Positions 1-3,000 of a stretch of DNA of 16,669 bases are shown one piece after another. Position numbers: made by a program. Position 1 is the first letter of the stretch; every line of letters starts with the position of its first letter. Source of the DNA: Sulfurihydrogenibium sp. (GTDB lineage Bacteria; Aquificota; Aquificia; Aquificales; Hydrogenothermaceae); the NCBI GenBank assembly GCA_037442825.1, contig JBBIPN010000024.1, positions 1-16,669 of the forward strand. Direction: 5' to 3'.

Positions 1-3000
1 CCAGTGCTTTGGCTTTGATTTAAATCAAGAGAAATAATGTTTTTATCTTGTTATAATATATAAAAATACTTTAATCAAGGTTAAAAATGAGATTTTTCCC
101 TATTTTACTAAACATAGAAGATAAACAAATTTTAGTAGTCGGTGGTGGGAACATCGCATTGGAAAAAGTAAAAAGATTGATTAATTTCACAAAAAATATA
201 ACTATACTATCTCCAGAGATAAAACCTGAACTGTTAGATTTAGTTTATTTTTATAATTTAAATTACCTATGTCAAAAATATGAAGAAGGTTGTATTGATA
301 ATTATGACATTGTAATAGTTGCTGTAAATGATTTAAATTTACAAAAAGAGGTTTATTTAGAAGCAAAATCAAAGAATAAGTTATGTAATAGTGTAGATAT
401 GATAAGATTTTCTGATTTTATATTTCCTTCAGTAGTTAAAAAGGGAGATTTTATCCTATCTTTTTCAACATCAGGAACATCTCCAGCTTTAGCAAAGTAC
501 TTGAGACAGGTTTTTGAAAAACTGATTCCTAAAGATATAGAAAAATTTCTTGAAGATATGAGACATTTACGAGAAAGTCTTCCAAAAGGAAAGGAAAGAC
601 AAGAACTTTTAGATAAGTTGGCGAAAGAGTATACAGAAAAATATTTTAAATTTATGGAGTATAAAGATGGTGATAGATGAATTAAAAAATGTATATTTAT
701 TTAAGCACTTACCAGAAGAAAAATTAAAAAAACTGGAAGAAATATCTAAAATAAAAAATTATGAACGTGGTCAAGTTTTATTTTTTGAAGGAGAAAAACC
801 AGAAAATCTATATATTTTGTTAGAAGGTAAAATAAGAGTATACAAAACTACTTTTAAAGGAATTGAGATAAATATAAATCAGTTTGGCCCTGTAAGTTTA
901 ATAGGTGAGTATGCAAATTTTGAAAAAGTACCTTATCCTGCTACAGCTGAGTTTATTGTAGAAGGAACAGCTTTAGTTATAAACTATAAAAAGTTTGAAG
1001 AGAATTTCTTAAAGGATGCAGAAGTTCTTTTCTCATTGGTAAAATCTTTAACAAATAAAATTAGGATGTTAAATAGATTTATAGAGTCTACAGTTGTACT
1101 TAGTGCAGAGGCAAGAATTGCCAAACTTCTGTTAGAAAGTAAAGAAATCTTTGAAATCTTAAAACATTATCAGATTGCATCCTTCTTGAACATAACTCCA
1201 GAGACACTTTCAAGAGTGTTATCTCGTTTAAAAAAGAATAAAATTATTGCAGTATCTGGAAGAGAAATAAAAATATTAGATCCAGAAAAATTAAATAAAA
1301 TTTCAAAAGATGAGATGCTAATCTAATTCTAAAGTTTTTAAAATTCTCCGAGGATCTATAACTTTTGAATATGATGAAAATCATTTTATTTTATTTATTT
1401 AATAATTTAAGATCTTAATATCTTAAATATATTTTTTTGATTTAAATCAATGATATTTAATTTTGAATTTATTATTTTTTGGTAACAGAAGAGAATATGA
1501 TATTAAGAGGTTTTGTTTATGGAAATCATTTCTATTGTGTGGAAAGTATCTTATGTAGTCCATATGATCTCTAATGCTGGATTTTTTGGTTCAACAGTAT
1601 TAGCTTTTTTTGATTGTAAAAATATATGTAATTCTTTCTCCATTGGGAAACTCAAAAAAATTTTATCTTTATTTTTAACTCTATCTGGTTTAACAGGGAT
1701 TGTTTTGCTTTCTATTTTAAGTATGGGTGGAATGGATGATCTAACATCGAATAACATCGGCTTAAGTATTATTGTTATGATCTTTTGTTATATTTTAGTG
1801 CTATTTAGTTTTATCTTCTTTTTGATTTACAAAGGAGGTGATCTAAAGATCGATAAATTTTTATTAGGTTTTCCACTTCTTATTTATCTTTTTGTTTATA
1901 TCTTTCGAGTAATTTTAGTTCATTAAAATTATTTAAAAGGAGGTTTGCTATGTCAGAGGAAAGGTCTTACAAAAAGTGGTTTGTCACATTTCTGATTGGT
2001 TTAATTACAGCTGTTCTCCTGTTTACTGGATTTACAGTTTATCAAATTAAAAATGTTCCACCTATACCAAAAGAAGTAAAAGGTGCAACAGGTACAGTTT
2101 ATACTTATGACGATGTTGTACAAGGGAAAGCATATTTTCAAAAATATGTACTAATGGATGTTGGTTCTATTCTTGGTAATGGAGGATACATTGCACCAGA
2201 TTATACAGCTTTATTTTTGGATAAGAAAATAAGAAATTTAGAAGAAGTTTATGCTCAAAAGATGCTTTCGAAAGATTTTAGTAGTTTAAATGAGTCAGAA
2301 AAATCTTATATTGATGCTTTTGTTAAAAAAGATATGAGAGAGGTCTCAATCTTAAAACCAGATGTAACACAACTAACACCTGAACATGAACAGGCATATA
2401 AGAAAGCAAAAGAGGAGTTGGTTGAATTTTTAACTAAAGGAAATCCAAATTATGCTCAAATTGGGGGAATTATAAAACCTGAAGAAGCTGAAAAAATAGC
2501 TGCATTTGTAGACTGGACTGCACTTGTCGCAGCATCACCAAGACCAGGTTCAAATTTAACTTATACAAACAACTGGCCACCAGAACCAAGGATAGGATTA
2601 ACAGCTTCTTTTTCTTCTCTGTTCTGGTCTTTGGTAGCAGTTATGGCAATCTGGACATTAACCATAGTTGTTTTATGGGCATTCTATGATTACTTTATGA
2701 AGTTTAATGGTGAGAAGCCAGAACCATCTCTTACTGTTTCCTCATTAACACCGATGCAAGAGAAAGTATTAAAGTTTGTACCATTAGTTCCTTTATTTTT
2801 CCTTTTACAAGTAGCTTTAGGTGGTTATTTGGCTCACCTCTATGCTGACCCTGCCCATAGTTGGATAGTACCACAGTCTTTATTACCTTTTAATGCAGCA
2901 AGATCTTTACATTTAAATTTAGCAGTTCTATGGATAGCTATTGGATGGTTGGCAGGTGGATTATTTATAGCTCCATTAGTAACTAAAGGAAAAGATTTTA

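Follow-up and report, generated by a model that had tools for sequence, protein, structure and literature searches.

The window analysed here (the whole stretch of DNA, 16,669 nucleotides of contig JBBIPN010000024.1) carries near its start a gene for a CRP/FNR-family regulator, g00748, lying among copies of the palindrome TGAT-N4-ATCA. By its named protein hits the host belongs to Hydrogenothermaceae, close to Sulfurihydrogenibium. The first-pass annotation had taken the palindrome for an operator and g00748 for its likely genome-wide regulator. The question that the locus raises is which protein reads this operator, at its own promoters and elsewhere in the genome.

Judged by its distribution, TGAT-N4-ATCA is a real CRP/FNR-type operator that stands before O2, NO and redox genes, as had been claimed. 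The 1.35 Mb genome, 5.8% of which is intergenic, holds 43 copies; with our own ORF set 24 of them are intergenic, one fewer than first reported, whereas the other spacings from N0 to N9 yield 15-61 copies each with 0-5 intergenic, again rarely so as the annotation had found. The word ranks first among 3328 4+4 palindromes (24 intergenic copies observed against 2.1 expected, Poisson p 1.2e-17). The extended form TGATT-N2-AATCA is indeed rich in intergenic copies, at 10 of 11 and not 11 of 11, and it ranks third of 13312 5+5 words, behind two G-rich stems, and not first. Four of the 24 intergenic copies belong to one dispersed repeat (C4:19081, C39:11127, C73:123 and C78:709), and C3:38284 and C119:162 are the same site, counted twice through a contig overlap, so that removal of the repeat and the overlap leaves about 19 distinct non-repeat intergenic sites. 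The identities of the box-bearing target genes were mostly confirmed by Pfam and NCBIfam; the gene labelled ccoP is a diheme cytochrome c that leads the ccoN/ccoO operon and scores below the ccoP cut-off. The box at C1:69593 was ruled out as a gatC repressor site, since it is placed as a class II site for a C-rich sRNA encoded on the opposite strand, and the reductase on C51 is NrdJ, not the anaerobic NrdD. An Rfam search of eight sources, which included the dispersed repeat and the window with the sRNA locus itself outside the set, gave no match. The genome encodes exactly two CRP/FNR proteins, g00748 and its paralogue g00337 (C7:25314-26018), together with one Rrf2 and three Fur-family regulators.

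The relevant part of the window is organised as follows.
15..28 (core 16-27), no strand: box 1, TTGAT-TTAA-ATCAA, TTGATTTAAATCAA, the canonical FNR/DNR form, read from the sequence
49..57, plus strand: extended -10 element TGTTATAAT, predicted sirC-g00748 promoter
87..680, plus strand: sirC, precorrin-2 dehydrogenase/sirohydrochlorin ferrochelatase (SirC / CysG N-terminal part; TIGR01470, 114.8 bits, cut-off 62.3)
667..1326, plus strand: g00748, Cys-free CRP/FNR regulator of Nss/DNR type (Pfam cNMP_binding and HTH_Crp_2)
1198..1215, plus strand: g00748 recognition helix PETLSR, residues 178-183
1371..1384 (core 1372-1383), no strand: box 2, ATGAT-GAAA-ATCAT, A-type, g00337-like
1406..1427, no strand: a second, different palindrome, TTTAAGA-N8-TCTTAAA
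1437..1455 (core 1438-1449), plus strand: box 3, TTGAT-TTAA-ATCAA followed by TGATA, island-type, ATCAATGA
1513..1926, plus strand: g00749, small membrane protein, conserved directly 5' of qNOR in relatives
1950..4175, plus strand: qNOR, quinol-dependent nitric oxide reductase (NorB with a cytochrome-c-like domain; PF22085 and PF00115)

Sequence and Pfam bear out the three boxes, at 16, 1372 and 1438, and the description of g00748 as a CRP/FNR protein with an E--SR helix and no cysteine; because it has no cysteine, it cannot hold the Fe-S cluster of FNR. The centre of box 1 lies 30.5 bp 5' of the predicted -10 hexamer of sirC-g00748, at about -42.5, which by geometry is a class II position, and in G046 the orthologous box 1 is accompanied by TG-TATAAT at +28.5. 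Box 3 is centred at -41.5, with a weak -35 at 1450-1455 and a predicted -10, TATTTT, at 1473-1478; class II activator sites follow a -41.5 rule. The idea that boxes 1372 and 1438 evolved as a tandem pair for norB was ruled out by G043 and G047, in which other genes lie between them. The equivalent of box 2 in G043, G047 and G021 serves as the promoter site for small genes that this genome does not have here. TTTAAGA-N8-TCTTAAA is a candidate operator of the Rrf2-family repressor encoded at C38:6974-7360: a perfect second copy lies 5' of the Rrf2 operon (C38:7831), a near-copy lies 5' of hemerythrin (C8:10899), and G043, G047 and G021 have two copies each. qNOR is 90-92% identical in G043, G047, G041 and G021, a search of Pfam and NCBIfam with g00749 gave zero matches, and the island context of sirC in relatives assigns it to the heme d1 (nir) gene set.

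In relatives, g00748 is a protein of nitrogen-oxide islands. Its orthologues (at least 46% identical) occur in 26 of 49 host-family genomes and sit in nap/nos/nir/nor islands, and an NO reductase match was found in 18 of the 19 family genomes that have g00748 against 6 of the 16 that do not. P178, E179, S182 and R183 are invariant in all 71 relatives, which share no invariant His or Cys (His167 is present in 34). The best PDB hits include DNR (3dkw, E 5e-15), and the nearest named relatives outside Aquificae are Sulfurospirillum proteins at 44-45%. The island boxes, a set picked partly with the TTGAT pattern and without two relic boxes of the G041 locus L051, have T as both outer bases in 24 cases out of 36 against 6 of 84 boxes from genomes that lack g00748, and show the flank form ATCAATGA in 23 of 36 against 2 of 84. 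Among the island boxes picked by g00748 alone, both outer bases are T in 11 of 20 (hand count) against 6 of 84, with a p of 5e-6; the relatedness of the genomes inflates this and the other statistics here. There are two sub-motifs, TTGAT-N4-ATCAA(TGA) in g00748 islands and mostly ATGAT-N4-ATCAT elsewhere, and they overlap, in that TTGAT..ATCAA sites also occur without g00748 (6 of 84; G049 has four). The 21 island promoters examined have their -10 at +29.5, in class II layout, with A in 17/21 and T in 18/21 at the -10 columns +30.5 and +34.5.

This genome has the ATCAATGA form nowhere but at window position 1437, at a nosZ relic (C77:3951) and 5' of sqr, and a search with the island proteins recovered sirC, g00748, g00749, qNOR and nosZ/cytochrome fragments alone; in G041, qNOR and relic boxes are present and g00748 is absent. 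This comparison makes the window what is left of an Nss/DNR-like nitrogen-oxide module, on a decaying island most of which has gone. g00748 appears to fit the TTGAT-N4-ATCAA(TGA) sites alone, in the window boxes 16 and 1438 and elsewhere the nos relic (C77:3952), and seems to control only the adjoining nitric-oxide genes. We propose that it is an accessory activator of nitrogen-oxide respiration of the Nss/DNR type which would bind TTGAT-N4-ATCAA near -41.5 and which, with the island shrunk to sirC-g00748-g00749-qNOR and the nosZ relic, would now serve NO removal through boxes 16 and 1438.

The paralogue g00337 has a very different distribution. Our sample comprised 118 genomes of the phylum that were at least 90% complete, 99 Aquificales and 19 of families f4/f5. 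A g00748 orthologue (E at most 2e-55) is present in 21 of the 99 Aquificales, whereas g00337 (E at most 2e-47) is present in 99 of 99 and in none of the 19 f4/f5 outgroup genomes, where no match is better than 2.6e-21. Within the host family, 46 of 49 genomes have an intact g00337 orthologue (64-91%); it is broken in G036 and was not found in G033 and G034, which are 83% and 78% complete. The Aquifex aeolicus orthologue, O66781, has a generic name only. g00337 has a CRP fold (model pLDDT 89) and the recognition helix V-E-T-A/T-I-R (here VETAIR), without the Ser of the FNR E--SR motif. Cys135, which the model places in the dimerisation helix (127-150), is kept in 119 of 119 close relatives and is the sole cysteine in 118; W89 is invariant among the 119 and Y145 nearly so. 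Only the Aquificales clade has the Cys135/Trp89/Tyr145 set, which 119 more distant proteins do not keep. Neither an Fe-S ligand set nor conserved His ligands were found in g00337. The gene order g00337-box-tpx-ahpC occurs in G050 and G051 (genus g11) and g00337-ahpC in G052; the tpx/ahpC neighbourhood is absent in G053, G106, G108 and the other f2/f3 genomes checked, and most family loci have no box 5' of g00337's own operon.

Pfam scores over the cut-off and an agreeing fold search assign both proteins to the CRP/FNR superfamily, and g00748 belongs with the Nss/DNR type by its nap/nir/nor/nos linkage and by the class II placement of a TTGA(T)-N-(A)TCAA box before those genes. Neither is an FNR, as the three N-terminal and one central cysteines of that protein compare with none in g00748 and one in g00337. 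CRP, according to PMC1274295 and general background, has Glu and Arg in its phosphate-binding cassette, Arg180 in the helix and a TGTGA site. g00337 has G88-W89 and V198, and g00748 has P178, which sets both apart from cAMP-binding CRP; the two score 75 and 49 with the CRP equivalog model, against a cut-off of 266, and all NCBIfam CRP/FNR models are far below cut-off for g00337.

The boxes behave as g00337 does, not as g00748 does. In genomes without g00748 we examined TGAT-W4-ATCA sites in G041 (18 of 18), G045 (22 of 24), G018 (13 of 13), G001 (18 of 18) and G049 (5 of 25), and found an exact box 5' of the cbb3 lead gene in all four well-sampled genomes, before petA in three, before SCO, iscU and sqr/ygfZ in two each, and before hemerythrin, superoxide reductase, ahpC and a porin gene in one each. 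Where an f2 genome has only one CRP/FNR hit (G050, 6 of 6 sites sampled; G080, 21 of 21; G071, 17 of 17; G083, 8 of 14), boxes lie 5' of ahpC, tpx, nuoA, icd, subunits of 2-oxoacid:ferredoxin oxidoreductase, cytochrome c and cydA. The exact cbb3 lead-gene box is present at 17 of 30 family loci, that is, at 10 of 13 without g00748 and 7 of 17 with it; genera g4 and g8 lack it or have it elsewhere, and in g2/g3 it lies 123-153 bp upstream. Of 30 ahpC loci 28 were scored, and 22 of these have the box with at most one mismatch, 19 of them at a shared position and 3 off it, against a background over 1221 upstream windows of 21 exact matches and 147 with at most one mismatch. Whole-genome counts in the f2 genomes without g00748 point the same way, with 367 W4 words against 211 W3 and 64 W5 (ratio 3.2) and 38 of 56 genomes above both controls. 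The f4 and f5 counts are flat (57 against 117 and 22, ratio 1.1), and the AT-rich f1 shows no excess (561 against 807 and 344, ratio 1.06, or 0.96 without g00748), so that whole-genome counts are uninformative for f1 and the case there rests on the footprints. A reversed-word control was discarded because it made the box appear enriched everywhere, an overstatement that the spacing controls exposed.

Two arrangements of box and promoter recur. At ahpC the layout is activation-like, with the -10 at +29.5/+30.5 (T in 18, A in 16 and T in 19 of 22), and by eye the same holds for tpx, superoxide reductase, hemerythrin, iscU and the C-rich sRNA. The cbb3 promoter of genera g1 and g6 is TTGAAA-17-TAATAT-like with the box immediately after it, exact in 10 of 11 genomes, and the SCO and petA boxes lie 16-21 bp 5' of the ribosome site, both repression-like.

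That g00748 regulates the entire TGAT-N4-ATCA regulon, as originally suggested, is very improbable in light of these data. Its intact E--SR helix is as expected for TGAT half-sites, three boxes surround its gene and, in this genome, it could also occupy global sites, whose core is common to both proteins. However, 78 of 99 Aquificales lack it yet keep boxes before the same genes, single-contig genomes among them, and the cbb3 footprint is as frequent without it as with it. Nor do we favour a non-CRP factor of the Fur/PerR or Rrf2 family at the global sites: the genome encodes such proteins and PerR classically controls ahpC, but the TGA-N6-TCA spacing is CRP/FNR geometry, the Fur-type TGAT-N7-ATCA is without intergenic enrichment (2 of 47), a different palindrome stands before the Rrf2 gene and g00337 adjoins box-tpx-ahpC, all of which makes this improbable. 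Given that the boxes persist without g00748 while g00337 is found in 99 of 99 Aquificales, we infer that g00337 is probably the global factor for the genome-wide sites. Two CRP/FNR proteins would then, as we think probable, read an overlapping TGAT-N4-ATCA core, g00748 in the island tier and g00337 in the global tier, the latter binding (A/T)TGAT-W4-ATCA(T/A), activating ahpC, tpx, superoxide reductase, hemerythrin, iscU and the C-rich sRNA from about -42, and repressing the cbb3 operon from directly after its -10, across +1, and SCO and petA from a place immediately 5' of the ribosome site.

The signal and its direction are more speculative. Tentatively, and with rather less than even confidence, we propose that g00337 is switched on through Cys135 at high O2, oxidant or reactive sulfur, raising the antioxidants and lowering the high-affinity oxidase, which would be the inverse of FNR logic. 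Conventional FNR logic, in which g00337 is active without O2, activates class II promoters (hemerythrin, SOR, the sRNA, hemN, cydA and g00748 itself, in an ANR-to-DNR cascade) and represses cbb3, SCO and bc1, agrees with boxes 5' of hemN (G045), cydA (G050), hemerythrin and SOR and with an A-type site inside the nitrogen-oxide island. The absence of g00337 from the anaerobic f4/f5 shows a link to O2 use and not its direction. The most conserved activated targets are nevertheless peroxiredoxins and Fe-S repair genes, the gene neighbours are tpx-ahpC and the protein offers neither Fe-S nor conserved His ligands, so that we consider FNR logic unlikely. Pure repression is doubtful on other grounds. 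Reduced g00337 would bind and only repress, and oxidation of Cys135 would release it so that oxidases and antioxidants rise with O2, a PerR/OhrR-like logic on a CRP fold. This single rule accounts for all targets, and the near-consensus -35 (TTGCAA) and -10 (TATAAT) of the f2 ahpC promoters may need no activator, but the ahpC promoters of f1 and those of the sRNA and iscU have poor -35 elements and a box at +29.5/+30.5 from the -10, as island activator sites do. The full extension of the oxidant-activated reading, that all Aquificales use g00337 (O66781) as a master oxygen/redox switch with inverted logic, sensing through a single dimerisation-helix cysteine and not through Fe-S or heme, with antioxidants and the C-rich sRNA up and cbb3 and bc1 down at high oxidant, is possible at best. 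The portions of two Hydrogenobacter papers available to us (PMC11772811, PMC3317640) contain nothing on the direction of regulation.

In a literature search that had most subscription journals outside it, no CRP/FNR regulon was described in Aquificales. Within that literature oxygen sensing in the order is likewise undescribed, and g00337 provides a named candidate in every genome of the order that was checked. g00748 appears to be an ordinary accessory nitrogen-oxide regulator, and the interest lies in the order-wide, single-cysteine g00337, for which a probable operator, a set of conserved targets and a single residue for mutation are now in hand; thermostable proteins and a genetically tractable member of the order make it testable. 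Should Cys135 prove to be the sensor, it would represent a way of sensing that is new among CRP/FNR global regulators.

Among known systems, g00337 resembles FNR/ANR and FixK2. Global oxidase and redox regulation, the TGAT-N4-ATCA core and sites both near -41.5 and over promoters appear to be common to all. As differences, g00337 lacks an N-terminal Cys cluster, its helix reads VETAIR and not ETISR, the outer base is mostly A, its putative cbb3 site is in a repression layout and its putative peroxiredoxin sites are in an activation layout. SdrP of Thermus and Cmr of Mycobacterium are also Fe-S-free CRP-family proteins tied to redox stress, with different motifs, and the similarity is weak (T. 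thermophilus PDB 2zcw, E 1e-13), the Cys135/Trp89/Tyr145 set being confined to Aquificales.

g00748, for its part, resembles Pseudomonas DNR, which according to PMC1274295 has a TTGAT-N4-ATCAA box, nir/nor/nos targets and no Fe-S motif; the sequences are distant, and the 71 g00748 relatives have no invariant His/Cys heme ligand. It also appears to be like NssA, NssB and NssC of Wolinella succinogenes and NssR of Campylobacter jejuni in combining a CRP/FNR fold without the FNR cysteines with nitrogen-oxide targets (nap, nos, nor/nrf). The W. succinogenes proteins respond to nitrate, NO and N2O, and their consensus, TTGA-N6-TCAA, is placed some 48 bp ahead of the start site (PMC11539149, PMC6682613). 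C. jejuni NssR binds TTAAC-N4-GTTAA with A180/Q181 (PMC1274295), whereas g00748 has P/E. Taken together, the two Aquificales proteins would form a two-tier system like ANR/DNR, but one with an Fe-S-free upper tier.

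A matrix scan of the Sulfurihydrogenibium sp. genome (G000) found additional sites with one mismatch to the CRP/FNR-type box, TGAT-N4-ATCA:

C126:810, C51:8106, C6:11569, C89:2289, C14:23498, C18:8309 and C34:11378: one-mismatch box sites

These sites add ahpC, nrdJ, apbC/mrp, an iscA-like gene, a probable ATP-citrate lyase subunit gene and a hydrogenase-4-like operon as possible targets. A degenerate intergenic repeat of 300-450 bp, which had no match in Rfam, is found in at least six places, and at four of these it contains the exact word:

C4:18.8-19.4 kb, C39:10.8-11.3 kb, C73:1-630, C78:0.5-1.0 kb, C44 and C23: dispersed repeat

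The nitrogen-oxide gene clusters (islands) have left traces. At C77:3950-4650, an island-type box (TTGAT-N4-ATCAA) is followed by eroded cytochrome c and nosZ fragments, and the stretch is a relic of the N2O reductase cluster. In the complete genome of a relative, G041 (C1:1352000-1371000), the Cys-free regulator g00748 is lost and g00749-qNOR is retained with two island-type boxes, which a probable insertion-sequence gene cuts off. The protein cluster holding g00748 includes members of 418-420 aa named 'siroheme synthase-like', probably fused sirC-regulator gene calls or true fusions. The single-Cys paralogue of g00748, g00337, is flanked by an MlaD-domain gene, adjoining it in all 30 family loci seen, and by a TolC-MFP-RND efflux operon; a box lies in the g00337-tolC interval of G022, G013 and G010.

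C7:23754-31912: g00337 region
C16:16205-17625, minus strand: sqr, two open frames

The two frames of sqr have about 337 and 91 codons, although sqr shares 90% identity across 308 residues with the G018 protein; the split may reflect a frameshift or an assembly error.

A second palindrome, TTTAAGA-N8-TCTTAAA, is a candidate NsrR/IscR-like operator:

Window 1406-1427, C38:7831, C8:10899 and C27:5943: TTTAAGA-N8-TCTTAAA

At C38:7831 a perfect copy precedes the operon of an Rrf2 protein that carries a motif of three Cys and has a protoglobin-like neighbour, and a near-copy (C8:10899) precedes the hemerythrin gene. The islands of G043, G047 and G021 hold two copies each. Genome-wide, the 5+5 core has few copies (n=6, 3 intergenic).

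C1:~69640-69705 (L120:841-908), plus strand: C-rich sRNA candidate, ~65 nt

This candidate carries an anti-Shine-Dalgarno-like tract and a terminator hairpin whose arms show compensating changes. An exact box stands at an identical distance from it in G000, G041 and G018, and its core is also matched in G022 and G001. In make-up it resembles RoxS/RsaE.
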